DNA of 64,000 nt from IMG/VR virus record IMGVR_UViG_3300032103_000073; one strand, 5' to 3'. Position 1 is the stretch's first letter; every line of letters starts with the position of its first letter. Below, in pieces: positions 42,566-55,953 of this stretch. This DNA is from a virus (Duplodnaviria > Heunggongvirae > Uroviricota > Caudoviricetes). The notes under the pieces were generated by a model. That model made no database searches and was not told the origin of the DNA. It saw only the letters and a program-made list of their open reading frames with translations. The translations under genes were made by a program, and so were the position numbers.

Positions 42566-42645
42566 CCCTTATTTGTAAAATAGAGTAAACGACTAAGTCG
42601 TTTACTCAGTAGGCAAGCATAAAATAAAAGATTGCAATGTAGACT

Positions 42646-43389
42646 ATGAGCACACGCTTACCTGTATACGCCCCTTTAAATAATAGATTTACGTTTGATG
42701 CTGCTCGTTTAATTGCAGAAATTAACAGTCTAATTGCAAATCAAGCAGAAGAAAGAACATTACCTTTTGAAAACGGTCGTAGCGTATATGACCCTGCTGG
42801 CCGGCTGCAAATCGCAAGCGATGCCGACTTAAACAACACTACGAAATATGAAATAAACGAACACAGACAACGAGTTAAAATCCCTGGCAAGATTAAAACT
42901 TACCATGTTTTTAACTTAACCTATTTGCCTGAAGAACAAGACAGTCTAATAGATATATATCGAAATAACGATCCTGAGAAAAAGATTTTTTGGCATACTT
43001 ATAAAAAGCCCTTTACGTGGCGTAAAGAATTAGAAAATACTTACATTAAACAGTGCGTGGAACAATTTCCGTGGGAGTATATACAAGGTGTTAGACTAAT
43101 ACATATGTCACCGCCTAGTATTGGACAAATTCATAGAGATAGTCACCCCAGAGATAATCTACGCTATTTTAGAGAAGGTTTTGCCAGTATCAGTTTTAAC
43201 ATAGACTCGGGCAATGGAGTTCTTAAGTATTTAGACGCAGGCGAAGAAAAGCAAGTTAATAATAATGTTAAAATATTTCACTTTGATGACAGTGTTGCCC
43301 ATGGTGTCACTGCAATTTCATCTCCACGCTACCAACTGAGAATGTGGGGGAAATTATCTGTTCCGTATTTGGATTTATTAAATGTTTAA
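42646..43389 (+). CDS. Fe(II)/2OG dioxygenase-like paralog
   Basis: QIHRDSHP ... VAHGVTA (HxD...H). Confidence 0.4.
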   Translation: MSTRLPVYAPLNNRFTFDAARLIAEINSLIANQAEERTLPFENGRSVYDPAGRLQIASDADLNNTTKYEINEHRQRVKIPGKIKTYHVFNLTYLPEEQDSLIDIYRNNDPEKKIFWHTYKKPFTWRKELENTYIKQCVEQFPWEYIQGVRLIHMSPPSIGQIHRDSHPRDNLRYFREGFASISFNIDSGNGVLKYLDAGEEKQVNNNVKIFHFDDSVAHGVTAISSPRYQLRMWGKLSVPYLDLLNV

Positions 43390-43933
43390 AAAACTTGATA
43401 ATTCTTTTTTAAATTTAGAACTAGATTGGAAGTCGTTTATAACAGATGATATATTTACAGAATATTATTCTAAAAAACGCGGCGGCGGTAGCTTCTTTTA
43501 TACCCTGCCTTGTAGTAAGAAAGACTTCTTAAATCTGCAAAAAAAGAATATTTTTACTATCGAACCAACTTTTATCCAGTACTGCGAATTTACCGGTCCC
43601 GGTTTGGTTACTCCGCATATTGACCGAGGGTCAACTGTTGCATTGAACTTTTACCTGGAACCGCAAGGTGATCGCACAATTTTTTATGAAACTACTTTAG
43701 ACTGTGACAGTGGTACCGGGTACCACGGGGATAAATCAAAGTTGTCATATGTAACAGACTTGAGCACCTTAAAAGAAATAGGATCTTTTGTTGCTGCACC
43801 ACTTGACGTTTATTTGCTAGACGTTAACAAATTGCACGGGATAGAAAAAGTAAACGACCTGCCGCGAACAATGATTACCTTCAGGTGGTTTAAACATTCG
43901 TATGAAGAAGTGTTATCAAGCCTGTCCTTATAA
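43382..43933 (+). CDS. Fe(II)/2OG dioxygenase-like paralog
   Basis: TPHIDRGSTVALNFYL ... KLHGIEK (HxD...H). Confidence 0.4.
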   Translation: MFKKLDNSFLNLELDWKSFITDDIFTEYYSKKRGGGSFFYTLPCSKKDFLNLQKKNIFTIEPTFIQYCEFTGPGLVTPHIDRGSTVALNFYLEPQGDRTIFYETTLDCDSGTGYHGDKSKLSYVTDLSTLKEIGSFVAAPLDVYLLDVNKLHGIEKVNDLPRTMITFRWFKHSYEEVLSSLSL

Positions 43934-43938
43934 AATAA

Positions 43939-43967
43939 TTGACACAAAGGCTAAATAGAAGTACAAT
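43939..43967 (+). promoter_or_regulatory. promoter (TTGACA-N17-TACAAT)
   Basis: upstream of tRNA-Thr. Confidence 0.6.
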
Positions 43968-43975
43968 AACAACAT

Positions 43976-44052
43976 TGCTGGATTAGCTCAGTTGGTAGAG
44001 CACTCGCCTTGTAAGCGAAAGGTCGTCAGTTCGAACCCGACATCCAGCACCA
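43976..44052 (+). tRNA. tRNA-Thr (TGT)
   Basis: cloverleaf; loop CTTGTAA; CCA encoded. Confidence 0.8.
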
Positions 44053-44086
44053 AAGTTAAATTTTTTATCTATTTTGCCAAAAGATA

Positions 44087-44115
44087 TTGACACAAGAGAT
44101 AAATAAACTTATAAT
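44087..44115 (+). promoter_or_regulatory. promoter (TTGACA-N17-TATAAT)
   Basis: consensus hexamers. Confidence 0.6.
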
Positions 44116-44164
44116 AGAAGCTTACGTTAACAAAGTTAGCGTAGAAATTTTTAGGAATAACCAA

Positions 44165-44314
44165 ATGCAAACGATTGCGAAACATTTTAGTCAGTTTAGT
44201 TCACAAGCCAAACAGGTGGCAATGCCCACCTATTGGTGTGCTCTAGGCTCTGGCTCTAATGATCGCACACCGGAGATTAGGTCAGGGTTCCATGAAGGAT
44301 CAGGTTACGCATAA
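44165..44314 (+). CDS. hypothetical small protein
   Basis: ATG 44165 after the promoter (track ORF begins at 44087). Confidence 0.35.
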   Translation: MQTIAKHFSQFSSQAKQVAMPTYWCALGSGSNDRTPEIRSGFHEGSGYA

Positions 44315-44337
44315 GTAATCAAAGAATTCAAAAGGAA

Positions 44338-44370
44338 CCCTGGAACTAAAAACTCCAGGGTTTTTGTTTG
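44338..44370 (+). terminator. rho-independent terminator
   Basis: ccctggaactaaaaactccaggg stem plus T-run. Confidence 0.8.
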
Positions 44371-44379
44371 CTGAAAAGG

Positions 44380-44760
44380 AAAAATGATAGACACCGAGAC
44401 AAGAATTAAACAGCAAGCAGAATGGTTGAAGTTGCATACTTTAACTCAGGAGCAAACGAAAGTTTTGATCCAGAACAAGTTAAGGCGTGCAACAGAGATG
44501 CATACTGCTTTAAACAAGCGAGAGGTGCTTTGTAAGCTCCGTTAAAATCGCAAACGTGGGATAGGGAACGCGACCCTGCAGACACGCAAAACACTGCTAG
44601 TAATGTGGGCGGCCTACCCGATGGTAAGTCTATGGTGAGAACGTAGATGTGTAAAACGGTAGAGTATTAAAGTGTATTAGGTCCCACACCAGGCAATTGG
44701 AGCCGAAATGTCGTCTAGTATACTTTAATACACACATTCGAAAGAGTGTGTTAACAAATA
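44380..44760. other. ORF-free structured region (candidate ncRNA)
   Basis: no ORF of 60 aa or more; multiple inverted repeats (e.g. acacacattcgaaagagtgtgt). Confidence 0.35.
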
Positions 44761-44761
44761 T

Positions 44762-44839
44762 GTACGGGTGGCAGAGAGGCCCAATGCAACGGTCTGCAAA
44801 ATCGTAAAACCGTCGGTTCAAATCCGACCCCGTACTCCA
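44762..44839 (+). tRNA. tRNA-Cys (GCA)
   Basis: cloverleaf; loop CTGCAAA. Confidence 0.65.
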
Positions 44840-44845
44840 AATTTA

Positions 44846-44923
44846 GCGTGGTTAGTGTTTAACGGCCTAGCACGACTGGCTTCCACCCAGTAAGAAAGAG
44901 TTCGAATCTCTTACCCCGCACCA
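44846..44923 (+). tRNA. tRNA-Gly (TCC)
   Basis: loop CTTCCAC; one acceptor mismatch. Confidence 0.6.
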
Positions 44924-44928
44924 AATTT

Positions 44929-45004
44929 ATCCTGTTAGTTTATCGGTTTAGAACAGTGGCCTTTCAAGTCGCAGAGACGGGTTCGATTCCCGTACAGGAT
45001 GCCA
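44929..45004 (+). tRNA. tRNA-Glu (TTC)
   Basis: loop CTTTCAA. Confidence 0.7.
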
Positions 45005-45011
45005 AGTTAGT

Positions 45012-45085
45012 AGGGGTATAGTGTAATGGTAGCACAACACACTTTGACTGTGTCGGTCTAGGTTCAAATCCTGGTACCCCCGCCA
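45012..45085 (+). tRNA. tRNA-Gln (TTG)
   Basis: strong similarity to the E. coli tRNA-Gln scaffold; loop CTTTGAC. Confidence 0.75.
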
Positions 45086-45092
45086 ATTTTAT

Positions 45093-45170
45093 CTCTGCGT
45101 AATGTCAATCTGGTAGACGGCCTGATCTGGAGTCAGGAGGCTGTAGGTTCGAATCCTACCGTGGAGACCA
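45093..45170 (+). tRNA. tRNA-Pro (TGG)-like, atypical (C33)
   Basis: anticodon arm CCTGA-TCTGGAG-TCAGG with C at position 33. Confidence 0.5.
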
Positions 45171-45177
45171 ATTTTAT

Positions 45178-45216
45178 ATCTCCGTAGCTCAATCAGGCAG
45201 AACACCGGTTTTGTAT
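45178..45216 (+). pseudogene. truncated tRNA 5' fragment (acceptor, D-arm and anticodon 5' half)
   Basis: ATCTCCGTAGCTCAATCAGGCAGAACACCGGTTTTGTA; no matching 3' half; resembles the 5' half of the tRNA at 49363. Confidence 0.55.
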
Positions 45217-45225
45217 AAATAAGCT

Positions 45226-45855
45226 ATGAACTATATAATTTACAAGACTACAAATCTGCTAAACGGTATGTACTACATTGGTTCTCATCAAACCAATGAC
45301 TTAAATGACGGATACTTAGGTTCGGGTAAACATTTAAAAAGAGCCATTACTAAGTACGGCAGAGAAAATTTTAAATTTGAAATTCTTTACTTTCTTCCCT
45401 CAAAAGAGGAAATGTTTAAAGTAGAACGAGAAATCGTAAATGAATCTTTTGTGCAAGATCCGCTAACGTATAATTTAAAAATCGGTGGTAGCGGAGGGAA
45501 TCCTGGTATTATCGGAGCTTTTTCTGGAAGAAGGCATACCGAAGAAACTAGAGAAAAAATGAGAGTTTCGAGGTCGAAACAAGCGCCCATGTCAGAAACA
45601 AGTAGACAAAAACTTTCAGAAAATAACTGGTCTAAAAGAGATCCCGGCGCGCATAGAGAACACATGCGTAAGATAGCATCTATGCCACGGTCGGAAGAAC
45701 ATAACAAAAAAGTCGCCGAAGCAAACATAGGCAAAACAATAGTTAATAATGGTATTATTGCTAAAAGAATAGATAAGAAAGATTTGAGCTACTATGAAGA
45801 TAGTGTTGGAAAAGAGGCGCAATGCCTCGTAAGAAATAATATGCCCTTAAGATAA
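45226..45855 (+). CDS. GIY-YIG homing endonuclease (Seg-like)
   Basis: IIYKTTNLLNGMYYIGSH...KRAITKYG GIY-YIG module plus basic C-terminal DNA-binding region. Confidence 0.75.
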   Translation: MNYIIYKTTNLLNGMYYIGSHQTNDLNDGYLGSGKHLKRAITKYGRENFKFEILYFLPSKEEMFKVEREIVNESFVQDPLTYNLKIGGSGGNPGIIGAFSGRRHTEETREKMRVSRSKQAPMSETSRQKLSENNWSKRDPGAHREHMRKIASMPRSEEHNKKVAEANIGKTIVNNGIIAKRIDKKDLSYYEDSVGKEAQCLVRNNMPLR

Positions 45856-45915
45856 CGGCAGTCGTCAGGTCTCCAAAACCTTGAAGTCGCGGTTCGAATC
45901 CGTGAGGGTATGCCA
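45841..45915 (+). tRNA. tRNA-Trp (CCA)
   Basis: acceptor ATGCCCT/AGGGTAT; loop CTCCAAA; overlaps the last 15 nt of the endonuclease ORF. Confidence 0.65.
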
Positions 45916-45922
45916 ATTTAAT

Positions 45923-46014
45923 GGAAAGTAATGCAGCGGGGATGGTCCTGCGACTGGCCTTGAAAACCAGGTTCTCAGAAATGGGATGGGGTTCGACTCC
46001 TCTGCTTTCCGCCA
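45923..46014 (+). tRNA. tRNA-Ser (TGA)
   Basis: type II; loop CTTGAAA; resembles E. coli tRNA-Ser. Confidence 0.75.
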
Positions 46015-46184
46015 ATTTTGAGACTGCTCTACGGGCACTGCAATGAACGTAGACAGGTTGTGTGGTGTGTTGGCAGCACAGCGGAAGCGAGTACCTAACA
46101 GAAAAGTTTGCAGACCGAGTAAGTTAGCGAAAGGGGAGCAGGGTTAGGTTCGAATCCTATCACATTTACTCAAATCTAATATAT
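46015..46184 (+). other. unassigned tRNA-like/structured RNA with a T-arm (GGTTCGAATCC)
   Basis: no ORF; T-arm motif at 46143-46159; no consistent acceptor pairing found. Confidence 0.3.
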
Positions 46185-46278
46185 AGTGAGTTGACAGAGT
46201 CTGGCTAATTGTGCCTCCCTGCTAAGGAGTGCGTCCTTGAAAGAGGGCACAAGGGTTCGAATCCCTTGCTCACTGCCA
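46185..46278 (+). tRNA. tRNA-Ser (GCT)
   Basis: type II; loop CTGCTAA; long variable arm. Confidence 0.75.
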
Positions 46279-46310
46279 AGTTGTCGAATGTTAAGATAAA
46301 TAAATTCATG

Positions 46311-46335
46311 CGGCTGTAGCTCAGTTGGTAGATTT
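46311..46335 (+). pseudogene. truncated tRNA 5' fragment (acceptor plus D-arm)
   Basis: GCGGCTGTAGCTCAGTTGGTAGA followed by unrelated sequence and the HNH gene. Confidence 0.5.
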
Positions 46336-46376
46336 ATGCGATAGAGTATAAATACAGTATAGGAGATACTCTACCA

Positions 46377-46763
46377 ATGAAAGCAATTTGCTTACAATGT
46401 AATAAAGATTTTGAATACGGGCATAGTTCCACTGGGAAGTTTTGTAGCAACCAGTGTAGCGGCTTATATAAGAAAACAGAACATAAACAAAAGTTCTTTT
46501 CAGGTTTGTTAAAACGAATTGAACGACCTACAGCAAGGAAATATCTTGCTGAGGAAAGAGGATATAAATGTGAAGTATGTAGCGTAAGTGATTGGCAAGG
46601 CAAGCCAATCACTTTACATGTAGATCATATAAATGGCGATCCGTCAAACGATCACCCAGGTAACTTAAGGTTAATTTGCCCTAACTGCCATAGTCAAACA
46701 GAGTTTTTGGGTGCGGCAAATAAAGGTAGAGGACGCGGTTCATTAGGAATCGCAAAGTATTAA
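46377..46763 (+). CDS. HNH homing endonuclease
   Basis: CxxC ... HVDHINGDPSNDHPGNLRLICPNCH (HNH with zinc ligands). Confidence 0.75.
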   Translation: MKAICLQCNKDFEYGHSSTGKFCSNQCSGLYKKTEHKQKFFSGLLKRIERPTARKYLAEERGYKCEVCSVSDWQGKPITLHVDHINGDPSNDHPGNLRLICPNCHSQTEFLGAANKGRGRGSLGIAKY

Positions 46764-46838
46764 GCAGGATTAATTCAGTGGTAGAATGTCTCGTTGCCAA
46801 CGAGAATGTCGTCGGTTCGAACCCGACATCCTGCTCCA
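46764..46838 (+). tRNA. tRNA-Gly (GCC)
   Basis: loop TTGCCAA; begins one nt after the HNH stop. Confidence 0.8.
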
Positions 46839-47061
46839 AATAACACGGCTCCTATCATTTGCTCATTGAGGAATGCTTGGGAGTTCTTTTATAAACTTCT
46901 AATGAACGCTCTTGCAGATGCCATGCTGGTAAAAAACTTCATGTCAAACTTTAGCGTATACAAATCGAGAACAAAGATATAGCAAACATCATTAGTCTCT
47001 GTCATAGACAAGTGGATTAATAACCCGCCTTTAGTTATAGAGTCGTATGTTTGCATTAAAA

Positions 47062-47138
47062 TATTTATCATGGGTCTTTAACTCAGTTGGATAGAGTGCC
47101 AGTCTTCGAAACTGGAAGTCGTGGGTTCGAATCCTGCA
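47062..47138 (+). tRNA. tRNA-Arg (TCG)
   Basis: loop CTTCGAA. Confidence 0.7.
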
Positions 47139-47163
47139 AGACCCGCCAATTATAAATATTAAC

Positions 47164-47760
47164 ATGATACTAAAGTACAGAGATCCAAGATTTTATTCTG
47201 TAGATTCGTTGAAGTGCTGGAAAAATGTCAACGTTCCTTTAAATGTTGTTCATCCCGATGCAACTATAGACATTAGATCAAATAGTTTGAAAGAAATATT
47301 GCTTCCATTATCTGCAATAGATCCCAATTTTAAATTATGGTTAGCAGAACTAGGATTAGAAATTTCCCTAGTAAGATTGTTTATTGCTAGTGCAAATTAC
47401 GAGTATACAAAACATGTAGATCGTCAAACATTTAACGACCAGTCAGTGGCGTTAAATTTTGCCTTCGATGACACTGGCACTGTTTTTTCATGGCATAATT
47501 TAAATAAAGATGGCAGGATCGAAGTTACAAAAAATAAAAACAATATCCCGATTTGGAATTTTTCCAACTGTGCTACTGTTTTGGCAGAAGAAATTAAACA
47601 TCGAGAAAATCAGCCGTTTTTAGTCAACACTGGATATATTCATTCTTTAAAAGTTGGCAATCAGGACAGACATTGTTATAGTTATTTCCTGCGGAAAGCC
47701 GGTACAGCCGTTCCGTTGCAATGGGATGATGCAATAATAGCATTTGACAGATTTATATAA
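47164..47760 (+). CDS. Fe(II)/2OG dioxygenase-like paralog
   Basis: KHVDRQ...LNFAFDD...NTGYIHSL; paralog of 52449. Confidence 0.45.
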   Translation: MILKYRDPRFYSVDSLKCWKNVNVPLNVVHPDATIDIRSNSLKEILLPLSAIDPNFKLWLAELGLEISLVRLFIASANYEYTKHVDRQTFNDQSVALNFAFDDTGTVFSWHNLNKDGRIEVTKNKNNIPIWNFSNCATVLAEEIKHRENQPFLVNTGYIHSLKVGNQDRHCYSYFLRKAGTAVPLQWDDAIIAFDRFI

Positions 47761-47764
47761 TTAA

Positions 47765-47839
47765 CTCGCTGTAGTTCAATGGATAGAACAGTTCTCTCCT
47801 AAAGAATAGATCCAAGAATCGAACTTGGTGGCGAGACCA
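47765..47839 (+). tRNA. tRNA-Arg (CCT)
   Basis: loop CTCCTAA; unusual T-loop AATCGAA. Confidence 0.6.
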
Positions 47840-47853
47840 TAAAGGAGATCGTA

Positions 47854-48027
47854 TGAAAACACTTTACTTTGAAAATATTCGCAACCGCGAACGCTTTTAT
47901 TGTAAAAACGCTCGAGACATACATATGATCGACGGCATTGAATACATGAAAGTTTTTAGACTGGGAACGCAACGCGAAGTTCTTGTTAAACGAGAATCTC
48001 TCAAGAAAGTTGCAGAGCCCAAGTAAG
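47854..48027 (+). CDS. hypothetical small protein (57 aa)
   Basis: SD AAAGGAG plus ATG. Confidence 0.35.
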
Positions 48028-48101
48028 GCTGCTATAGTATAATGGTATTACATACCCTTGGTAAGGGTAAAACACAAGTTCAATTCTTGTTAGCAGCACC
48101 A
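48028..48101 (+). tRNA. tRNA-Thr (GGT)
   Basis: loop TTGGTAA. Confidence 0.8.
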
Positions 48102-48105
48102 TTAA

Positions 48106-48134
48106 TTGACACAAAATAGAGAACATGCTACAAT
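48106..48134 (+). promoter_or_regulatory. promoter (TTGACA-N17-TACAAT)
   Basis: drives leader A and the tRNA-like at 48347. Confidence 0.6.
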
Positions 48135-48139
48135 AGATA

Positions 48140-48346
48140 CAAGTTAAGAAATTAACTGTTTTGATAGATGTTGTTGGGAGCGATCCCCCACAACAGAGAT
48201 GTAAGGTCCTCAACTGCGAGGCGTTAGCAACATTTATCATCTTGTTCTTTAAAAATTTGCAGTGTTGTTTAGGCTGATTGACGGCAATCGAAAAGCAGTC
48301 TGAGTCTTGTCCCCGGCGCACCGCTTTGCCGAGCGTACCGCAGGGA
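48140..48346 (+). other. structured leader A (candidate small RNA), homologous to leader B
   Basis: shared 5' box AGAT(A/G)(C/T)AAGTTAAG(A/C)AATTAACT and a GGGA(A)GCGATC hairpin. Confidence 0.4.
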
Positions 48347-48420
48347 GTCTCTATAGTGTAAGGGTAGCACGCCAGCTTGTAAGAGTTGGAGGATTGGGTT
48401 CGAATCCCAATAGAGTTTAA
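48347..48420 (+). tRNA. tRNA-Gln-scaffold paralog with an 8-nt anticodon loop (TTGTAAGA); no CCA
   Basis: D-arm and T-arm nearly identical to the tRNA-Gln at 45012; stem CCAGC/GTTGG encloses 8 nt. Confidence 0.4.
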
Positions 48421-48453
48421 CAAGACATCAGCCTAAACAACATTGCAAATAAG

Positions 48454-48482
48454 TAGACACAAATTCTTGTGTTTGCTATAAT
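48454..48482 (+). promoter_or_regulatory. promoter (TAGACA-N17-TATAAT)
   Basis: drives leader B and tRNA-Glu. Confidence 0.5.
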
Positions 48483-48489
48483 AGATGTA

Positions 48490-48641
48490 AGTTAAGCAAT
48501 TAACTTACTTGCTCTTTAAAAAGTTCATCCAACATATAAGTCGCTGGGAAGCGATCATTATATGCAAACACATTAGATCAGCTACCGGCGAAGGGAGTAA
48601 CCGGCGATTGTTAAAGTGAGTGTGTTTACATATAATGTTTT
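48490..48641 (+). other. structured leader B (candidate small RNA)
   Basis: homologous to leader A. Confidence 0.4.
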
Positions 48642-48716
48642 ACTCGGTTCGTCTATCGGTTAGGACGACAGCCTTTCAAGTTGTAAAGACGGGTTCGATT
48701 CCCGTACCGAGTACCA
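48642..48716 (+). tRNA. tRNA-Glu (TTC), second copy
   Basis: loop CTTTCAA; T-arm identical to the copy at 44929. Confidence 0.7.
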
Positions 48717-49362
48717 AAAATAATCGTAGCGGTTGATGAGACTGATTAAACAAGTCAACTGAATAATCTCCCACAGATCAGTTGTAAAGGAGAACGTCTA
48801 AACACTAAGGCAATGCTTAGTACTATAGTAGATGGAAACCGACCCCTGTCAGAGCGCGGGGGCTTTTACAGTGTTTATAGTAGAGTAGGAAGTATCCGAA
48901 GCGACTTAGTTAGGATGCAGCCAACAGACCAACATTGACCGCGTAGATAGTCCGGACTATCGCTTGAAACGGAAGATGCGTCCACCCCCTGCCCTGCTTT
49001 ACTATAAACACTGTGAACGATGCGAAAGTAAGTCGGTCCAGTAGGGTAAGGAAAAGTATTGCTAGCGGAAAGAGCTGCCGAAGGACAGAAGTTAGTCCCG
49101 CATGGCAATGACTAATGCGGATAGGCTAACGCCGTGTAATCCTTCAAGAATTTGCTAACACAGGGTGGATTTACATGCCGATGTGTTTAATGTTGTTTAA
49201 AACCGAGCAGTGTGCCTTATCAGCGCAATAGTTAGACTCTACCTGGCAACAGCAAACCAAATGTAAGATAGTTGCTATCGCGTCCTGCAGGTAAGTTAGC
49301 AACCGTAACATCACGGACGGGCGTATTTTATGCCGTGTAATCAAATGCGACTCAGTAATTTA
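48717..49362 (+). other. about 640-nt ORF-free structured region (candidate ribozyme or ncRNA; group-I-intron-like P7 elements)
   Basis: AGATAGTCCGGACTA (48947-48961) and GTTAGTCCCGCATGG / GACTAATGCGGATA about 140 nt downstream; G/C-rich helices. Confidence 0.35.
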
Positions 49363-49437
49363 GCTCTGTTATTTCATGTGGTAGAATACCGGTTTTGTAG
49401 TCCGGAGAGGGCAGTTCAAGTCTGTCACGGAGCACCA
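49363..49437 (+). tRNA. tRNA with anticodon arm CCGGT-TTTGTAG-TCCGG (TGT, Thr-like; U:U closing pair)
   Basis: cloverleaf with CCA; anticodon assignment uncertain. Confidence 0.5.
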
Positions 49438-49503
49438 TATTAAAACACATTACTAAGAGTCCAGGTTCATAGCGTGGCCTAGTGTGTTTTAATATGTTTA
49501 TGT

Positions 49504-49581
49504 CCGGGTGTAGCGCAGTCTGGTTAGCGCATCTGCTTTGGGAGCAGAGGGTCGTGAGTTCGAATCCCACCACCCGGACCA
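49504..49581 (+). tRNA. tRNA-Pro (TGG)
   Basis: loop TTTGGGA. Confidence 0.75.
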
Positions 49582-49590
49582 AGTTTATGT

Positions 49591-49668
49591 TGGGGTATAG
49601 CTTAGTTTGGCCTAAAGCAACGGTCTTTGAAATCGTGATCACTGGTTCGAATCCAGTTACCTCTGCCA
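49591..49668 (+). tRNA. tRNA-Gln (TTG), second copy
   Basis: loop CTTTGAA; U1:U72. Confidence 0.6.
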
Positions 49669-49724
49669 AGTTTTAGGAGAATCGCGTAAGCGTATTCTTA
49701 ATCGACCCAGTATCAGGGCGTCCT

Positions 49725-49752
49725 GACATTAGTATTTTTTGGGGGCAGCAGC
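49725..49752 (+). terminator. hairpin plus T-run (weak terminator)
   Basis: tcagggcgtcctga ... tttttt. Confidence 0.35.
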
Positions 49753-49827
49753 GGGCTGCGGTGATCCCTTGCAAGGATCATGACTAGAAGGGTTCAACTC
49801 CCTCGGCCTCCACCAAACAATGCCCGG
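49753..49827 (+). tRNA. tRNA-Ala (TGC)-like
   Basis: G3:U70; loop CTTGCAA; atypical D region and 8-nt variable loop; T-loop TTCAACT. Confidence 0.5.
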
Positions 49828-49833
49828 TTAATT

Positions 49834-49907
49834 AAATGGTATAATACACCCCTGATAAGGGTGAATCACTGGATCGTAACCAGTACTGGGTACCAATGTT
49901 AGTTAGA
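49834..49907 (+). tRNA. tRNA-Ile (GAT)
   Basis: loop CTGATAA. Confidence 0.7.
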
Positions 49908-49948
49908 GCATTCTGTTGATCTATGATAAATAATATTATGGAGACAAT

Positions 49949-50542
49949 ATGTTTTGTAAATTTTGCAACAAAGAATGTAAGAATAAGAATAGTCTAGTAA
50001 ACCATGAGCGTTTATGTCCAGCGAACCCTGACAGAAAATATGTGTCACACACGCTAGGTAAAAACGGTCATGTCGCTTGGAATAAAGGACTGTCCAAAGA
50101 AACTTCTAGATCTTTGGCACAGTTAAGTGAAACACATAAGCGAAACGGTCACGGTGGCTGGTCTAAGAAAGCTAGTTCCAACGGAGGCAAAGCAGGTGGC
50201 GGATATCGTGAAAATGCAGGAAGAAGTAAGAAATTCAAAGTAGTCGATTCTTTCGACAAAACGGTGTGCTTGCAAAGCACATACGAACTTAGATGCAGTC
50301 GACTATTGAATGAGTTGGGCATTAAGTGGATAAGACCATCAGCATTAAAGTATGATAGTAAAAATTATTTTGCTGATTTTTATTTACCGGAGTATGATTT
50401 GTATCTAGATCCAAAGAATAATTATAAAGCAAAATTGGATACTGACAAAATCAATAAAGTAAAAGAACAAAATAATGTAAGAGTTGTGATTCTCACTGAG
50501 GATCAGTTGACTCAAGATTATATAAAAAGCCTTTGTAGTTAA
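49949..50542 (+). CDS. zinc-finger protein, possible homing-endonuclease-like
   Basis: N-terminal CKFC...HERLC zinc finger; basic middle region; inserted between tRNAs. Confidence 0.35.
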   Translation: MFCKFCNKECKNKNSLVNHERLCPANPDRKYVSHTLGKNGHVAWNKGLSKETSRSLAQLSETHKRNGHGGWSKKASSNGGKAGGGYRENAGRSKKFKVVDSFDKTVCLQSTYELRCSRLLNELGIKWIRPSALKYDSKNYFADFYLPEYDLYLDPKNNYKAKLDTDKINKVKEQNNVRVVILTEDQLTQDYIKSLCS

Positions 50543-50602
50543 ATGGTATAACGGTCGCTTGATAAGCGATTATTACAAGTTCAATTCTTGTCGAAGGCAC
50601 CA
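50529..50602 (+). tRNA. tRNA-Ile (GAT)-like, second copy
   Basis: loop TTGATAA; overlaps the preceding ORF's 3' end. Confidence 0.55.
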
Positions 50603-50841
50603 AGTTTTGTAGCGTTAGCAAGAGAAAAGTACCAATTCGTGTAGCTGGCCAGCGAAAGAGGAGGTAAAACAGGAGGGGGTTCAACTCCCCACCGCGGGTA
50701 GCCATGCGGTAGCTGGAATGGAGCATCTGACCAAGTATCCCAAGTAACAAGTCCTGGAAGAACTCGACGTAAGGAAGTCCGGCTCTGTACGTCTAAACAC
50801 TAGTGATAAACCTGAGGACGCTAGGCTACAAATTAATTTAT
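50603..50841 (+). other. ORF-free structured region with a tmRNA-type T-arm motif (GGGGGTTCAACTCCCC)
   Basis: motif at 50667-50682; no CCA end. Confidence 0.3.
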
Positions 50842-50917
50842 TCCCCAGTAGCACAGCGGTAGTTGCGCCTGACTGTTAATCAGGATGTCCGTGGTTCGAT
50901 CCCACGCTGGGGAGCCA
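50842..50917 (+). tRNA. tRNA-Asn (GTT)
   Basis: loop CTGTTAA. Confidence 0.75.
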
Positions 50918-50971
50918 ATTAATAAACACATTGCCGAGCGACGAAGGAAATGAGTAGTGTGTTTTTTAATT

Positions 50972-51061
50972 GGAGAGTGTTCCCGTCAGCGGCCTGTAAA
51001 GTCGTTGTCCTTAATTTGGCGGGTGGCTGGACAGATGGTTCGATTCCTTCACTCTTCACCA
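50972..51061 (+). tRNA. tRNA-Tyr (GTA)-like, atypical (reduced D-arm, about 28-nt variable arm)
   Basis: acceptor GGAGAGT/ACTCTTC; anticodon arm GCGGC-CTGTAAA-GTCGT as in E. coli tRNA-Tyr. Confidence 0.45.
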
Positions 51062-51066
51062 ATTTT

Positions 51067-51141
51067 GGCCTTGTCATATAGTGGTTATTATACCGGTCTG
51101 TCTAATCGGATATCGGGGTTCGATTCCCCGCAAGGTCGCCA
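51067..51141 (+). tRNA. tRNA-Asp (GTC)
   Basis: loop CTGTCTA (U37). Confidence 0.6.
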
Positions 51142-51148
51142 GTTTAAT

Positions 51149-51225
51149 GCGTCTGTAGCTCAGTTGGATAGAGTACTTGGCTACGAACCAAGGGGTCGTG
51201 GGTTCGAATCCTGCCAGACGCGCCA
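51149..51225 (+). tRNA. tRNA-Arg (ACG)
   Basis: loop CTACGAA. Confidence 0.8.
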
Positions 51226-51230
51226 AATAT

Positions 51231-51307
51231 GCCAATGTAGCTCAGACGGTAGTAGCAGCGGATTGAAAATCCGCGTGTCGGTGGTTCGATTCCACTCGTT
51301 GGCACCA
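51231..51307 (+). tRNA. tRNA-Phe (GAA)
   Basis: loop TTGAAAA. Confidence 0.8.
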
Positions 51308-51453
51308 GTTAAGGGATAGACGGTACGATGAGTCCCACACAACCTAGCATTGGGTCTAGCAATGCGAAACGGCAGATCGGTTGAAGTGGTTGTATAAACT
51401 CTTGTATGCGAGACAATCCGGTAAGGTCTGCGGGAACAGACGAGCTGGGCTCC
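51308..51453 (+). other. ORF-free structured spacer (candidate ncRNA)
   Basis: no ORF; G/C-rich hairpins. Confidence 0.3.
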
Positions 51454-51530
51454 CAATCTATATGCCTTGGTGACGGAATTGGTATACGTGCTTGACTCAA
51501 AATCAAGATTCTGTGGGTTCGAGTCCCACC
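51454..51530 (+). tRNA. class-I (short variable arm) tRNA with Leu anticodon CAA
   Basis: arm CTTGA-CTCAAAA-TCAAG; 4-nt variable loop. Confidence 0.55.
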
Positions 51531-51531
51531 C

Positions 51532-51560
51532 AAGGTACCAGTTGACACAAAATAGCAGAT
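51532..51560 (+). promoter_or_regulatory. promoter (TTGACA-N17-TATAAT) plus SD and 7-codon mini-ORF (MKRSGKR)
   Basis: AACAGGAG then ATG 51585 and stop 51606. Confidence 0.55.
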
Positions 51561-51681
51561 GCTATATAATTTAATTTTAAACAGGAGTATGATATGAAAC
51601 GTTCAGGTAAACGATAGTGTCATCCTAGACCCCGTAATTGGTCTGGGTTGGCACGTAAAAGAAAATGTAATTTACGACTAA

Positions 51682-51755
51682 CCCTTCGAGATGTTATGGT
51701 TGCATAGCGGACTCTTAATCCGACAAGTGACGGTTCAAATCCGTCCGGAGGGACC
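51682..51755 (+). tRNA. tRNA-Lys (CTT)
   Basis: loop CTCTTAA; 4-bp anticodon stem. Confidence 0.6.
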
Positions 51756-51761
51756 AATTAT

Positions 51762-51835
51762 GGGATTGAAGCTTTAAGGTGAAGCAACGGACTTTTAATC
51801 CGTAGATCTGGGATCGTTGGCCCAGCAGTCCTACC
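51762..51835 (+). tRNA. tRNA-Lys (TTT)
   Basis: loop CTTTTAA; atypical T-loop. Confidence 0.65.
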
Positions 51836-51956
51836 ATATAAAAACACATTATTAGTTCAGTAGAGAACGATAACAGGCCATCTTTTGGTAGATCAGTATG
51901 TTATAGGACAACAGATGAAATTTCTGTTATAGTGTGTTTCTATATGGTATTTTTAT
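51836..51956 (+). other. spacer with hairpin and T-runs (terminator-like)
   Basis: aacagatgaaatttctgtt hairpin. Confidence 0.3.
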
Positions 51957-52032
51957 GCAGCGTTTAGTGGAGTGGTTACCATACTTGTCTGTGAAACAAG
52001 TGAGAACGGTTCGAATCCGTAACGTCTGCCCA
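51957..52032 (+). tRNA. tRNA-His (GTG) with G-1 and a bulged U in the acceptor 3' strand
   Basis: loop CTGTGAA; G-1:C73. Confidence 0.55.
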
Positions 52033-52227
52033 AACAATATTTTTTGTTAAGCTGTAGTTTAAATGAAAGCCTGAGTGTTTCCCGACGGGGATTAGCAAGG
52101 GACGCGGTAAGTTAGTAGACAAAAACGACAATGGGCCCTGCGTTGTTGGCGGCTACTGATGATGACAATAGAATAACGTCCGCGGAGGACGAGGTGCTCA
52201 GAGTTGAGCCAGCTTTACAAAGAATAT
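52033..52227 (+). other. ORF-free structured region (candidate ncRNA)
   Basis: 195 nt, no ORF. Confidence 0.3.
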
Positions 52228-52303
52228 GGTGATGTAGCTCAGTTGGTAGAGTACCTCCTTCATACGGAGAGTGTCGGCGGTTCAAGTCCGTCCATCACCA
52301 CCA
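52228..52303 (+). tRNA. tRNA-Met (CAT), elongator-like
   Basis: loop TTCATAC. Confidence 0.7.
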
Positions 52304-52310
52304 AATATAA

Positions 52311-52437
52311 TCTGTAGGTGCTGAAACGGTAGACAGCAGACGGCAGTCTGTGTAAAGGGTTCGAATCCCTTGGAAGTCCGCAAGACTTTTAGTATGGTAC
52401 TATTGGTGGTTCGAGTCCATCCCTGCAGACCAAATAA
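52311..52437 (+). ncRNA. about 125-nt tRNA-like element (acceptor CTGTAGG/CCTGCAG, CCA, two T-arm-like hairpins)
   Basis: 7-bp terminal pairing, D-arm-like helix, internal AAGGGTTCGAATCCCTT and GGTGGTTCGAGTCCATC. Confidence 0.4.
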
Positions 52438-52448
52438 ATAAATAGTCA

Positions 52449-53051
52449 ATGGAACAAAAATTTTTATTTGCAGAAAAGTCAAAATGTTTTAGACACATCA
52501 CTATGCCGTTTACCTTTATTCAACCGCATGTTCCTATCGATCTGACTAGCATTACTTCTCCTAAGGAAATACACATTAATATCAATTCAGTAGACGCCTG
52601 TTTTATAACATGGTTGCATAATCTAGGTTTGTATTCACTCCATCCTAGGTTATTTGTTACTCCGCCTGGGACAAAATACAATATCCATGTTGATATTTTG
52701 TTCCCGCGAGAAAATACTGCTACTTATTTAAATTTTCCGTTTAATGACGCTGGTTCATTTATGAGGTGGTTTAATTTAAAAAACGAAAAAAATGCTTATA
52801 TAACAACTACTAGTGTAGAAGACAAAAAATTTCAAGTTATTAATGCAAACGAAGATGATTGCTCTGTTATCGAAATTATGCACGCGCCCGGCAATTCTCC
52901 TATATTAGTTAATGCCGGTTACTTACATGATTTAACGAATCCGAGTAATTTCAGACATTGTTGGAGTTTCCCTTTGCTAAAATTAATCGACAACACACGA
53001 ATAAATTGGGACGAAGCAGTGGAGATTTTTTCCTCTTACATTAAAAATTAA
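52449..53051 (+). CDS. Fe(II)/2OG dioxygenase-like paralog
   Basis: IHVDIL...LNFPFNDAG...NAGYLHDL. Confidence 0.45.
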   Translation: MEQKFLFAEKSKCFRHITMPFTFIQPHVPIDLTSITSPKEIHININSVDACFITWLHNLGLYSLHPRLFVTPPGTKYNIHVDILFPRENTATYLNFPFNDAGSFMRWFNLKNEKNAYITTTSVEDKKFQVINANEDDCSVIEIMHAPGNSPILVNAGYLHDLTNPSNFRHCWSFPLLKLIDNTRINWDEAVEIFSSYIKN

Positions 53052-53574
53052 CAGGTAAGTCAAATATTCGAATCAGTAGCATCACTCGCATATTTGGAGA
53101 TTTGTTTTCTACTCTATGCGGAACTTTAACCGATAGCAAATAAGGCACAGAAGTTTCGTGAGATTCTATTAACTTACAATCATCCGGGTAGTACCTGAAA
53201 AAATGATGAGTTTTTCCTTTATTTTCTACTGTTACTACGTGCGGGTTTGCTAGCGTGTTATAAAAATTTATCCAAGTATTTTCGCACCCAGAAATGGGAA
53301 TGTTTAAACTATATCGGTAAGGACCGCTGTCCATATGATAATTTCCGTTGTCATATCCCATTGTTACATTTATTGCAACCTGGCCTACGCAATGGTTGGG
53401 TAATTTTAGATCATTAATTACTTTTTTGATAGACGGAAGTGTTAAAAAAACATCTTTGTTATTTTCTATATAAGTTAAATTAGTAGAAAGCAAAAGGTGT
53501 TTGGGTATAGACATCAATACTTCGTTTTGTATGTCTGTGAGATTTTCTATATGTATTTCTCTAAAAGGAGCCAT
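53041..53574 (-). CDS. Fe(II)/2OG dioxygenase-like paralog
   Basis: YHMDSGPYRYSLNIPISGCENTWINF...VPHRVEN; paralog of 18783. Confidence 0.45.
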   Translation of the reverse strand: MAPFREIHIENLTDIQNEVLMSIPKHLLLSTNLTYIENNKDVFLTLPSIKKVINDLKLPNHCVGQVAINVTMGYDNGNYHMDSGPYRYSLNIPISGCENTWINFYNTLANPHVVTVENKGKTHHFFRYYPDDCKLIESHETSVPYLLSVKVPHRVENKSPNMRVMLLIRIFDLPVNF

Positions 53575-54195
53575 ACTAGTATTTATAAAATATCTCGCAG
53601 ATCAAGTTTATGTGGCGTGTATAGGTCATACACGATTTCTGGCAGTTGAAGTGACAGGAGTAATTATCCTGAGAACGATACTGGTGCTGGGAGGTAACGT
53701 TGCCCGGCGAGAAATCCGAGATTGTTTGCGTTCGAGTCGCAAACGCTACACACAAAGTTTCTTGCAAGAAGAACAGAGGTACGGTGGTCCTACTTGAGTG
53801 GGGACTATAAAAGCCGACAAACGCCTGGGGTACAACTCCATACGCTCAGCCAAATAAGGCGGATTCTGTTTCTCCGTAACAGCCCTAGCAGGCACCTGAA
53901 AAGGACTTGGGACAGCGTATTGCTACATCGACGACGAAATGTCGAGCTGGAGAATGTAACCAGCATCCATAGTCAATAACATTCATCATTGGTAGATAGC
54001 CTTAAGCGGTTGGCAAACCGGGACTACACTACGAAGCAGCTTAGCCAGCGCGATGAAAAGACCCTTTACGTCGAGAGTGTTATTGACTATGGTCCACAAG
54101 GGTGGTATGTAGGCAACGTGGATTTGCCGAGGACCGGGATTCCTTAACTAGCCAACAACTAGTGCCATATAGTATATTGGTATTACATTTATAAT
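53575..54195 (+). other. about 620-nt ORF-free structured region (candidate ncRNA or ribozyme)
   Basis: no ORF of 100 aa or more; AGGTAACGTTGCCCGG; AACCGGGACTAC / CATAGTC elements. Confidence 0.35.
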
Positions 54196-54270
54196 GTCCG
54201 GTTATTTCAGCGGTAGAATACTTCCATGACACGGAAGAGGTCACTGGTTCGATCCCAGTACCGGACACCA
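54196..54270 (+). tRNA. tRNA-Val (GAC)
   Basis: loop ATGACAC. Confidence 0.7.
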
Positions 54271-54271
54271 A

Positions 54272-54300
54272 TTGACACAAAATCACAGAACAACTATAAT
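54272..54300 (+). promoter_or_regulatory. promoter (TTGACA-N17-TATAAT)
   Basis: upstream of the tRNA at 54304. Confidence 0.6.
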
Positions 54301-54303
54301 AAC

Positions 54304-54380
54304 AACTAATAATGCCCCGGTGGTGGAATTGGTAGACACGCTACGTTGAGGTCGTAGCATTTGCAGGTTCGAGTCCTGTC
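54304..54380 (+). tRNA. class-I tRNA with Leu anticodon GAG (G37)
   Basis: 5' half resembles E. coli tRNA-Leu (TGGTGGAATTGGTAGACAC) but the variable loop is only 4-5 nt. Confidence 0.55.
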
Positions 54381-54432
54381 CAGGGTACCATTGAATGTAA
54401 AGTTAAATACATATGTAAACAAAGGAGTAATC

Positions 54433-54993
54433 ATGTCTGTACTAGCACTCGACATTTCTGGAATCCCACGTCAGTGGATTTCCTTTGATGACGCTATCAC
54501 TTACCACGCCAAAGATGCAGTAGCATGGAGCATGGGAGAAGTAGTAGCGAAGTATCGCGGTGGCTTACAAAATGATGGATCTGAAAGTTACTTGGAAACC
54601 ACTAGCATTATTGCTATTAAGGGTCACGGATTTAATCCCCATAAGCACGGAACTGTGGCGTTGAGCAACCGAACATTGTTTGGTCGTGACCGCAACACTT
54701 GTGCCTACTGCGGGGGTCATTTCCCTAACTATCACCTGTTGAGTAGGGATCATATTGTTCCTAAATATCACGGCGGTGAAAATACTTGGATGAACTGTGT
54801 TACGGCTTGCAAGGAATGTAACAGCAAAAAAGGACATAAGACTTTGAAAGAAGCTCGTATGGAATTGCTCTACGTGCCATATGCACCTAACCACTTTGAA
54901 AATATGATTTTGCAAAACCGAAGCATCATGGCGGATCAGATGGAATATTTGATCCAAGGTGTGCCTAAGCACAGCAGGATCCTGCTTTCATAG
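54433..54993 (+). CDS. HNH endonuclease
   Basis: CAYCGGHF...DHIVPKYHGGENTWMNCVTACKECNSKK; SD GGAG before ATG 54433. Confidence 0.75.
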   Translation: MSVLALDISGIPRQWISFDDAITYHAKDAVAWSMGEVVAKYRGGLQNDGSESYLETTSIIAIKGHGFNPHKHGTVALSNRTLFGRDRNTCAYCGGHFPNYHLLSRDHIVPKYHGGENTWMNCVTACKECNSKKGHKTLKEARMELLYVPYAPNHFENMILQNRSIMADQMEYLIQGVPKHSRILLS

Positions 54994-55005
54994 ATTGAGG
55001 GTGAT

Positions 55006-55218: not shown

Positions 55219-55280
55219 ATTAAATATTTACCAAAATTTAGTAGGTAAGCGTCAATAAATATCAACACAAGGAGAATACC

Positions 55281-55952: not shown

Positions 55953-55953
55953 A

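Follow-up and report, generated by a model that had tools for sequence, protein, structure and literature searches.

The window analyzed here, a 64-kb stretch of IMG/VR virus record IMGVR_UViG_3300032103_000073 (Caudoviricetes), carries at 43977–54390 an island of 33 tRNA genes on the plus strand; two more plus-strand tRNA genes (37652–37809) lie ~6 kb before it, and the resulting set of 35 spans all 20 amino acids. We read the region as the tRNA island of an uncultivated jumbo phage, organized in polycistrons, shaped by homing-driven mosaicism and supporting phage translation; we put the probability of this reading at about 0.88. As an array alone, it is ordinary for giant phages, a member of a well-known kind and one more giant-phage translation toolkit. 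Its interior content matters more: tRNAs fill 2.55 kb of the 10.4-kb island and open reading frames (ORFs) ∼3.9 kb, while roughly a third is neither and consists of conserved structured RNA modules.

The phage contig that includes the window measures at least 267 kb (267,009 bp); two Logan assemblies match the window exactly. Motifs of the island DNA retrieved dozens of IMG/VR viral contigs of up to 356 kb with similar arrays (loci in these relatives are given L numbers), which hold 25–41 tRNAs per ∼10 kb; L145, for example, has 41 tRNAs in 12 kb. The two marks of a phage tRNA island, a phage genome of >200 kb and viral relatives, are both present, and in a contig of jumbo-phage size such an island is an already known kind of feature. 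Huge phages were described with up to 67 tRNAs, together with IF3/initiation factors, release factors and tRNA repair genes (PMC7162821). Matches to PHROG families within the window include ClpX-like, IF3-like, ClpP-like, TauD-like and RF-1-domain proteins, phosphoesterases, a Pnk-like protein and a T4 Rnl1-type RNA ligase; the best tblastn matches of the ClpX-like protein include jumbo phages of 470–500 kb.

The tRNA genes were called with ARAGORN and with the Rfam covariance model RF00005 (gathering score 29 bits), laxer filters being used for rescue. ARAGORN called 32 tRNAs in the window, all on the plus strand (30 in 43977–54390 and 2 in 37652–37809), and RF00005 at its gathering score found 30 loci, 28 of them inside the array. 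The model recovered Arg(CCT) at 47765–47836, missed by ARAGORN, and with laxer filters it passed Trp at 45841 (42.1 bits) and Ser(GCT) at 46185 (38 bits) as well; in all, 32 of the 35 genes passed, at 34–73 bits. Two class-II tRNAs, Ser(TGA) (45923–46014, 34.7 bits) and Tyr(GTA) (50972–51061, 26.5 bits), scored best with the sister model for tRNA-Sec, whose cut-off of 47 they do not reach; their anticodons were read by eye, as were the CCA ends of Tyr and His. Ala(TGC) at 49741–49815 is an ARAGORN call unmatched by RF00005. Folding by hand, an earlier note had counted about 35 tRNA genes in the island; 33 lie within the range that it gave and 35 are reached with the upstream pair, so that its candidates were not rejected in large part: beside the 32, two matched the sister model and one failed. 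Its list of anticodons was borne out too, including Arg(CCT), Ser(TGA), a ‘Tyr-like’ gene and class-I tRNAs with Leu anticodons, of which there are two (51464 and 54314). The CCA end that it had noticed in many genes is encoded in 34 of the 35, and the same 34 have a 7-nt anticodon loop and an intact acceptor; the sole exception is the element at 48346–48419.

The island opens with Thr(TGT) (43977–44052). A five-tRNA block with spacing of 5–7 nt follows at 44762–45170: Cys(GCA) (44762–44839), Gly(TCC) (44846–44923), Glu(TTC) (44929–45004), Gln(TTG) (45012–45085) and Pro(TGG) (45093–45170). Beyond it stand Trp(CCA) (45841–45915), overlapping the end of a GIY-YIG ORF, the class-II Ser(TGA) and Ser(GCT) (46185–46278), Gly(GCC) (46764–46838), Arg(TCG) (47072–47148), Arg(CCT) (47765–47839; 45.7 bits, with the unusual T loop AATCGAA and a homologue in L122 that ARAGORN calls Arg(cct)), Thr(GGT) (48028–48101) and a second copy of Glu(TTC) (48642–48716). 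A second block of five (49363–49895) is made up of Thr(TGT) (49363–49437), Pro(TGG) (49504–49581), Gln(TTG) (49591–49668), the atypical Ala(TGC) and Ile(GAT) (49822–49895), with another Ile(GAT) at 50529–50602; a third (50842–51307) has Asn(GTT) (50842–50917), the class-II Tyr(GTA), Asp(GTC) (51067–51141), Arg(ACG) (51149–51225) and Phe(GAA) (51231–51307). The remaining genes are class-I Leu(CAA) (51464–51540, 63 bits), Lys(CTT) (51682–51756), Lys(TTT) (51762–51836), His(GTG) with G-1 (51957–52033), an elongator-type Met(CAT) (52228–52303), Val(GAC) (54196–54270) and class-I Leu(GAG) (54314–54390). The upstream pair comprises a tRNA with anticodon CAT (37652–37728, 73 bits), which has G1–C72, is not an initiator and could be an elongator Met or Ile2, and Arg(TCT) (37735–37809). 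Genes listed without comment on their detection were called by both ARAGORN and RF00005.

A motif scan found TTGACACAA-N13-15-TAYAAT 15 times in the window, always on the plus strand, against 0.00 copies expected from shuffles; it is a predicted sigma-70-type phage promoter. Six copies serve tRNA blocks. One (TTGACACAA..TATAAT, 37601–37630) precedes the upstream two-tRNA operon; the others are at 43939–43967, where tRNA-Thr begins 10 nt past the −10 box, 44087–44115, 48106–48134 (5 nt after the preceding CCA and kept in L122), 51542–51570 and 54272–54300 (each 2 nt after a CCA). Those at 44087, 51542 and 54272 agree with the consensus at 12 of 12 positions, and a seventh, degenerate copy (TAGACA..TATAAT) is at 48454–48482. 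The gaps of 1–5 nt between the preceding CCA and the promoters at 48106, 51542 and 54272 contain no terminator. Internal promoters had been placed by the earlier note at 48106, 48454 and 54272, correctly, and at 51532, which is really 51542; as to the hairpin terminators by which it saw the array subdivided, a single convincing one lies inside the array, a hairpin at 44336–44362 followed by a T-run, and the other hairpin-plus-T matches on the plus strand are tRNA arms. A bidirectional intrinsic terminator, found by hairpin scan, follows the two-tRNA operon (37814–37848). We thus regard the embedded promoters as strongly confirmed and the terminators as marginally so.

The promoter TTGACACAAAtT..TGCGTTATAAT recurs elsewhere in the window, e.g. 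at 6220, 8499, 19298, 21112, 23089, 23476, 30568, 34948 and 59771, as if many short units across all 64 kb were driven by a single class of promoter. Transcripts from the promoters at 48106 and 48454 would open with a similar hairpin (AAGTTAAGnAATTAACTT; 48135–48160 and 48483–48505), also seen in L122, which could be a 5′ stabilizer or an operator.

We envisage that the island is transcribed as several short polycistrons, in which tRNAs are often 5–7 nt apart. With such spacing and with CCA already encoded, the tRNAs would be released by host RNase P and 3′ trimming; as the RNA modules abut tRNAs, the same cuts would free the modules. The tRNAs would then sustain phage translation when host tRNAs are scarce, mismatched or cleaved by host anticodon nucleases. 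Phage tRNAs can overcome tRNA-cleaving host defenses (PMC11464382, PMC11555353), and a role in translation maintenance fits the neighboring genes for IF3-like, RF-1-domain and ClpXP proteins, polynucleotide kinase and Rnl1-type ligase, the Pnk-like and Rnl1-like genes lying ∼9 kb downstream of the leader of the lysine tRNAs.

Under strict wobble, the tRNA set could read ∼85% of phage codons, a figure derived from phage codon usage only, in 80 crude ORF calls from the window. Codons left uncovered are Leu UUA, CUA and CUG, Val GUA and GUG, and Ile AUA unless one CAT tRNA is Ile2; strict wobble adds those codons of the Ala, Pro and Ser four-codon boxes that end in a pyrimidine. The two CAT tRNAs are both non-initiators. 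Two points count against our reading of the island: about half of the Leu codons, Val GUA/GUG and (with no Ile2) AUA fall outside the phage set, and three elements, at 48346–48419, 49741–49815 and 52312–52432, are doubtful as tRNAs.

Endonuclease-driven gene conversion would produce the mosaic order and the divergent duplicates. Four endonuclease ORFs are found in and next to the island, all on the plus strand. The first, of 209 aa (45226–45855), resembles GIY-YIG homing endonucleases (Pfam PF01541 and NUMOD3). Directly upstream of it is the 5′ half of a tRNA-Thr(TGT) that ends in the anticodon loop (45178–45215); at this position L145 has an intact Thr(TGT), preceded by a tRNA-Pro of 97% identity, and L157 has Val(TAC). 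An HNH endonuclease ORF of 128 aa (46377–46763, found with Pfam) comes just after a 23-nt tRNA 5′ fragment made of acceptor and D arm (46310–46332), a site at which L122 has an undamaged Gly(GCC); 1 nt past the HNH stop codon the window has another Gly(GCC), which is complete. An endonuclease-like ORF of 197 aa (49949–50542; PHROG endonuclease/resolvase families) stands between the two Ile(GAT) copies. Another HNH ORF is at 54434–54993 (Pfam HNH_5, E = 1e-15), with a likely ATG after AAGGAG in place of the TTG at 54361 with which it starts in the ORF list. Pfam scores are 23.9 bits for GIY-YIG (cut-off 22.6), 24.8 bits for HNH_3 (at the cut-off) and 57.8 bits for HNH_5.

Hence three homing-type endonuclease genes adjoin a truncated tRNA-Thr, a tRNA-Gly 5′ fragment and a duplicated tRNA-Ile, catalytic-domain matches coinciding with damaged or duplicated neighbors; cleavage activity is putative. 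Intron-less homing with co-conversion of the flanks was shown for SegB in the T4 tRNA cluster (PMC2330249), and by analogy the arrangement in the island would be the pattern expected of it, if the nucleases are active. Such co-conversion would also leave ‘duplicates’ that are ∼63–80% identical. The duplicates reported earlier do exist; they are divergent to this degree, several stand beside homing-endonuclease genes, and they are not recent tandem duplications. A group I intron with the GIY-YIG gene inside tRNA-Thr was considered and rejected: downstream there is neither a 3′ half nor a T arm, Rfam gave no intron match, and the tRNA of the relatives is intact.

The leader of the lysine tRNAs (51571–51681, 111 nt, plus strand) is a candidate regulatory element. 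With the promoter at 51542 upstream and Lys(CTT) and Lys(TTT) downstream, it contains a mini-ORF, ATG AAA CGT TCA GGT AAA CGA TAG (51594–51617; MKRSGKR), behind a Shine–Dalgarno (SD) sequence AGGAG (51583–51587). Hairpin 1 (regions 2:3, 14 pairs, 51617–51654) starts at the G of the stop codon, and its 3′ arm has GGGTTGG at 51645–51651. Region 4, CTAA|CCC (51678–51684), is the junction of leader and tRNA-Lys; it contains the expected RNase P site and is complementary to this 3′ arm.

A search for the motif of stop codon and hairpin returned 97 IMG/VR loci, of which 66 distinct ones with enough flanking sequence were analyzed. An in-frame ATG mini-ORF of 6–8 codons is present in 65 of the 66, with an SD-like motif in 57 of these 65. 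In 65 of the 66 loci tRNA-Lys(CTT) follows, in 60 of those 65 with tRNA-Lys(TTT) as well. The peptides vary (MKRAKR, MKRGKL, MKASAKQ, MKQGKQ, MKLGKP, MKVAKP and others), their lengths differing by multiples of three nucleotides; the invariant residues are the Lys of codon 2 (AAA, occasionally AAG) and the penultimate Lys, whose codon is AAA in all 40 listed variants (these cover 65 of the 66 loci). A translatable short ORF with an SD sequence and cognate codons, as in leader-peptide attenuators, is thus found here.

The alternative pairing is conserved as well. The hairpin 1 arm GGGTTGG is complementary to the junction C(C/T)AA|CCC, i.e. to the RNase P site and the first acceptor-stem nucleotides, and this 3:4 pairing has 6–7 contiguous pairs in 63 of the 66 sequences. 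Where the arm reads GGATGG, the junction has AT|CC (8 of 8); where it reads GGTTGG, the junction has AA|CC or AAC|CC (53 of 56); swapping arms and junctions across the two classes leaves 3–4 contiguous pairs. By nearest neighbor outside the region, the eight A-variants form at least four groups. The 2:3 and 3:4 pairings are mutually exclusive, and both covary. No U-run follows the 3:4 pairing, which ends inside tRNA-Lys; it is thus not an intrinsic terminator, and the leader is attenuator-like at most, not a member of the class.

Constrained folding of eight representatives suggested how the two structures might alternate. In the models, hairpin and tRNA acceptor stem both form when the RNA is free. 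When the footprint of a terminating ribosome is masked, the 3′ arm shifts to the junction in all eight, with the acceptor stem fully lost in five and partly lost in one more. A stall modeled at the penultimate AAA flips the fold in four of the eight, an effect that depends on the sequence.

One could propose from this that the leader is a translation-operated switch on tRNA-Lys maturation. A ribosome reading the mini-ORF to its stop would unwind hairpin 1, and the 3′ arm, once free, would pair with the RNase P site and on into the acceptor stem (its first three nucleotides), blocking folding and processing of tRNA-Lys. A ribosome stalled at AAA for lack of Lys-tRNA would leave hairpin 1 intact, and the phage Lys tRNAs would mature. 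The supply of phage tRNA-Lys would then rise exactly when tRNA-Lys is depleted, e.g. by PrrC- or PARIS-type nucleases. Both are known to cleave tRNA-Lys, and phage tRNAs can counter them (PMC3025547, PMC11464382, PMC11555353); as tRNA-Lys is a favored target of anti-phage nucleases, such a switch would be a damage-responsive counter-defense. We hold this proposal, taken jointly with the view that the modules of the island are new RNA families, tentatively and at somewhat less than even odds.

Several observations weigh against the switch: no U-run terminator comes after the 3:4 pairing, the effect of a penultimate-codon stall varies with the sequence in the models, and the loci are homologous, so that their association with Lys tRNAs counts as a single observation. 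The AAA at codon 2 and the basic penultimate residue could have been kept for efficient initiation and termination. AAA is a favored second codon in E. coli, and the penultimate residue affects termination efficiency. These facts lend weight to a rival explanation, that the mini-ORF is no sensor of tRNA-Lys and is a mini-cistron that serves to load ribosomes, e.g. so that Rho is blocked or the leader is unfolded at all times. An alternative pairing with no U-run terminator agrees with it, as does the flipping of the fold in half of the models already by a stall at the penultimate AAA. Against it speak the invariance of the two Lys codons, shared by no other sense codon, the Lys tRNAs that come next in nearly every locus (a regularity of common origin, not of independent events) and the covariation, in at least four groups, of a pairing over the 5′ end of tRNA-Lys. 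We consider this explanation a real possibility, if not a probable one.

If the switch operates as proposed, leader-peptide control would be acting on tRNA genes, and at RNase P processing; in the literature that we searched, neither tRNA genes under leader-peptide control nor such control at RNase P processing, in place of transcription termination, had been described. The leader is short enough for direct testing in E. coli.

The spacers, treated as empty in the earlier note, are for the most part conserved RNA elements. At least two of them are well-supported families outside Rfam and cultured phages. The ‘leader RNA’ (∼210 nt; 44544–44755, plus strand) lies just upstream of the first tRNA of its block and consists of a stem AGTG/CACT, a hairpin CAGG..CCTG, a long hairpin TATTAAAG..CTTTAATA and an invariant hairpin CACATTC-GAAA-GAGTGTG. 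In an alignment of 22 sequences (A2), with mean column identity of 54%, 94% of helix cells are paired and 17 of 30 pairs show compensatory changes; none of 500 shuffles reached the observed values, and slid controls came nowhere near. The family was found by nhmmer in ∼45 loci, including loci retrieved with unrelated queries, and has no match in Rfam 15 or in 50,697 GenBank phages.

The ‘Big RNA’ (48802–49155, plus strand; alignment A4 of 20 sequences) measures 354 nt here. A long-range closing helix, a three-way junction and a second domain make up its core of 190–250 nt, into which an arm with a closing stem of 15 bp (48867–49015) is inserted in the window. Some members have long variable arms where others have GNRA-capped stubs, the core being kept. 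In the alignment 20 of 49 pairs are compensated and 95% of cells paired, and again 0 of 500 shuffles reached these values. In relatives, the Big RNA starts 2–3 nt past a tRNA CCA, and a few nucleotides separate its end from the following tRNA, so tRNA processing would excise it. It is unmatched in Rfam 15, in the 50,697 GenBank phages and, by a search of 185,579 reference genomes with its 19-mer motif, in reference genomes. A 5′ hairpin ACTAAG/CTTAGT, tried as part of its structure, was paired in 77% of cases with no covariation, and the long-range helix is supported instead. Relatives of both families were located by nhmmer.

Nearly every other spacer has homologues in other viral loci, and the modules recur in shuffled order, beside different tRNAs, in many IMG/VR relatives. 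Pair counts for these smaller spacers come from crude alifold runs on few sequences with no shuffling control and are thus provisional. A candidate small RNA (44122–44372; folding z-score −7.0) runs from the promoter to the terminator hairpin 44336–44362 and its T-run; the stretch 44190–44375 recurs in at least 10 loci, where 4 pairs are compensated, and a 75-aa TTG ORF within it is probably spurious. The module at 46015–46184, with a closing stem and a T-arm-like hairpin, has four homologues that are 67–79% identical (9 of 40 pairs compensated), and the spacer at 46839–47071 is 76% identical to L122/L123. The leader at 48135–48345 keeps its 3′ 100 nt in four loci, and that at 48483–48641 has a conserved hairpin at 48491–48575 (7 sequences, 6 of 12 pairs compensated). 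A conserved module at 49256–49362, with homologues in other viral loci, is followed by the conserved spacers 49438–49503 and 49669–49740 within the block 49363–49895. A 239-nt module with a T-arm-like hairpin (50603–50841) is 84% identical over its full length to L097, and parts of it match six other loci; the module at 51308–51463 has three homologues, with 10 of 41 pairs compensated. The structured spacer at 52031–52227 (z-score −3.9), unexplained, has no homologue among the relative loci compared. An ORF-free stretch of 621 nt (53575–54195; z-score −3.5) holds at least two modules, 53727–53855 and 53967–54093, the latter with a closing stem of ∼16 bp and 15 of 39 pairs compensated in six sequences. 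All of these are on the plus strand.

Several candidate identities were tried. GOLLD, ROOL, tmRNA, RNase P and group I intron gave no Rfam match with E <= 1 in 37000–56000, nor with E <= 10 in the two large gaps. The 621-nt gap has no Rfam match; the idea that it encodes an RNase P RNA, raised by an apparent likeness to E. coli M1 RNA, was dropped, as Rfam gave no RNase P match with E <= 10 and blastn no match to E. coli genomes. The 18-mer hairpin of the leader RNA (CACATTCGAAAGAGTGTG) was rejected as a widespread recognition element: its 14 matches in 596 Gb, none of them a phage relative, are about what chance would give, GNRA-capped terminator tips raising the rate of coincidence. The exact 18-mer caps unrelated long hairpins and terminators in phages and bacteria, 8 of the 14 extending into longer stems; its occurrences include the viral and genome loci L127, L130, L134, L136, L139, L160–L163 and L190–L200. 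We also noted a repeat CCATAT(T/A)AAAACACATTA that starts at a tRNA 3′ end (49434–49503 and 51833–51957) and forms the 5′ arm of a spacer-spanning hairpin AAACACA..TGTGTTT; a 20-mer of this repeat also follows tRNAs in ∼10 other viral loci.

Could the spacers be decayed tRNAs and endonuclease debris, conserved by recent common descent? T-arm-like motifs in several of them, the clear tRNA fragments at 45178–45215 and 46310–46332 and the modest number of homologues (3–5) of some modules would agree with such an origin. Recent descent is hard to reconcile with the two best-sampled families, in which 94–95% of cells are paired at a mean column identity of 46–54%, with 17 and 20 double-changed pairs that neither shuffles nor slid controls approach; debris would also hardly exchange its variable arms for GNRA-capped stubs around a kept core, or appear as the same modules in different orders beside different tRNAs. 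We find this explanation unlikely. The view that the modules are new families of structured RNA, set free by the enzymes that process tRNAs, shares the tentative standing given above to the lysine switch, with which it is proposed jointly. Some of the modules may already be in a catalogue of ∼10,000 unnamed candidate viral RNAs (PMC10690425).

Relatives of the island were found solely among IMG/VR viral contigs; against 50,697 GenBank phage records it showed no nucleotide similarity except for single tRNAs, and the Big RNA 19-mer, a motif diagnostic of these phages, had zero matches in the 185,579 reference genomes, in which proteins were not searched. That the region is a ‘tRNA array unit’ of a bacterium or plasmid is very improbable: arrays of similar size do occur there, e.g. 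in Mycobacterium and Firmicutes chromosomes and on plasmids (PMC5966550), and no capsid, tail or other structural gene was seen within the 64-kb window, its ClpP-like ORF merely resembling head-maturation proteases, but viral relatives alone, dense small ORFs on one strand, homing endonucleases, a T4-type Pnk/Rnl1 pair, 15 copies of one promoter and a ClpX-like protein closest to jumbo phages all speak for a phage.

Within the jumbo-phage island, several tRNAs depart from the usual form. The element at 48346–48419 (plus strand, RF00005 46.4 bits) lacks CCA, its anticodon loop (TTGTAAGA) is 8 nt long and its acceptor stem contains a U:U mismatch; it may be a pseudogene or a special-purpose tRNA. 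Ala(TGC) has G3:U70, a four-pair stub for its D arm and a normal anticodon arm, and is kept in relatives. The tRNA-like element at 52312–52432 (plus strand), which combines two T-arm motifs with an acceptor-like stem and a CCA end, is unexplained.

The tRNAs Leu(CAA) at 51464 and Leu(GAG) at 54314 each measure 77 nt and have A73, a variable loop of 5 nt and a Leu-type D loop (GGAATTGGTA in 51464–51540); neither has the long variable arm of class II, to which bacterial tRNA-Leu belongs. The class-I form, unusual in bacteria, is yet widespread in phages. The pattern of this D loop and class-I spacing matches >119 IMG/VR stretches, in which 107 of 116 ARAGORN calls have Leu anticodons; hundreds of GenBank records of Salmonella and Escherichia phages match the class-I tRNA and are annotated tRNA-Leu, and Leu(CAA) is 87% identical over its full length to an annotated tRNA-Leu of Vibrio phage JSF10. 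Nothing essential sets the two genes apart from the class-I tRNA-Leu of T5-like and other phages. As E. coli LeuRS does not require the long arm, they are plausibly functional.

Some tRNAs of the relatives are absent from the window. A conserved tRNA of 92 nt whose anticodon is TAT (Ile, AUA) has a long variable arm, a class-II-like build unusual for Ile; it is found at L128:3303–3394, L131:3352–3443(−), L149:7434–7525, L152:2906–2997 and L164:645–736(−). Another 92-nt tRNA, at L144:595–686(−), has an anticodon, TTA, that would recognize the stop codon UAA, and ARAGORN predicts a permuted tmRNA at L137:3205–3580(−). It found no tmRNA in the window; a permuted-tmRNA match at 52276 (23 bits) was judged to be noise.

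Five paralogous ORFs with the signature HxD...H...R flank or interrupt the island: 42646–43389, 43382–43933, 47164–47760 (198 aa, plus strand), 52449–53051 (200 aa, plus) and 53041–53574 (177 aa), the last being the sole minus-strand gene of the island. The HxD..H..R columns are conserved in most of the five. None has a Pfam match; an AlphaFold (AF2) model of one paralogue (pLDDT 88) is a beta-sandwich, and its best PDB matches in Foldseek are cupins and 2-oxoglutarate (2OG) prolyl hydroxylases, at low TM-scores (0.35–0.46). As far as this evidence goes, the modeled fold suggests that the paralogues are cupin/2OG-oxygenase-like proteins of unassigned substrate, and a role in modification of tRNA or translation factors is possible. 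For the ORF at 47164–47760, a large protein search gave five homologues, all on metagenomic contigs of ∼1–2 kb, and a protein-based search of IMG/VR gave no relatives. A TauD-like dioxygenase gene is nearby (37847–38725, minus strand).

Two small plus-strand ORFs complete the island: one of 53 aa (44384–44545), kept in some relatives, and one of 57 aa (47853–48026) between Arg(CCT) and Thr(GGT), which has the same neighbors in L122 and L123 and no family match. Translation and RNA-repair genes elsewhere in the window are at 403–2137, 25624–26241, 55458–55952 and 58803–62396; the RF-1-domain protein is ArfB-like, and a phosphoesterase and an HD hydrolase are also encoded. An HNH homing endonuclease gene is on the opposite strand (62367–63083).

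Compared with known systems, the island shares with the tRNA clusters of T4, T5 and huge phages its dense same-strand tRNAs, phage promoters and expected processing by host RNase P. The T4 tRNA cluster also yields stable RNAs of unknown function (species 1 and 2). As in the island, an endonuclease gene, that of the GIY-YIG enzyme SegB, is found inside the T4 cluster (PMC2330249). What differs from all these clusters is that here about one third consists of structured RNA other than tRNA. In this respect the modules are comparable to GOLLD and ROOL, large covariation-backed RNAs of phages and prophages, of unknown function and often near tRNA islands (PMC12286853); the island RNAs are, however, smaller (∼200–350 nt) and of other sequences and folds. 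A phage tRNA island can evidently carry many other structured RNAs, which extends the puzzle posed by GOLLD and ROOL. The lysine leader, for its part, resembles the trp, his, leu, thr and pheST attenuators in having an SD sequence, a short ORF with cognate codons and a choice between 2:3 and 3:4 pairing that would depend on ribosome position. It differs from them in that the genes regulated would be tRNAs, not enzymes, that two Lys codons take the place of a run, and that the 3:4 pairing, instead of leading to a U-run, covers the RNase P site and three nucleotides of the acceptor stem.

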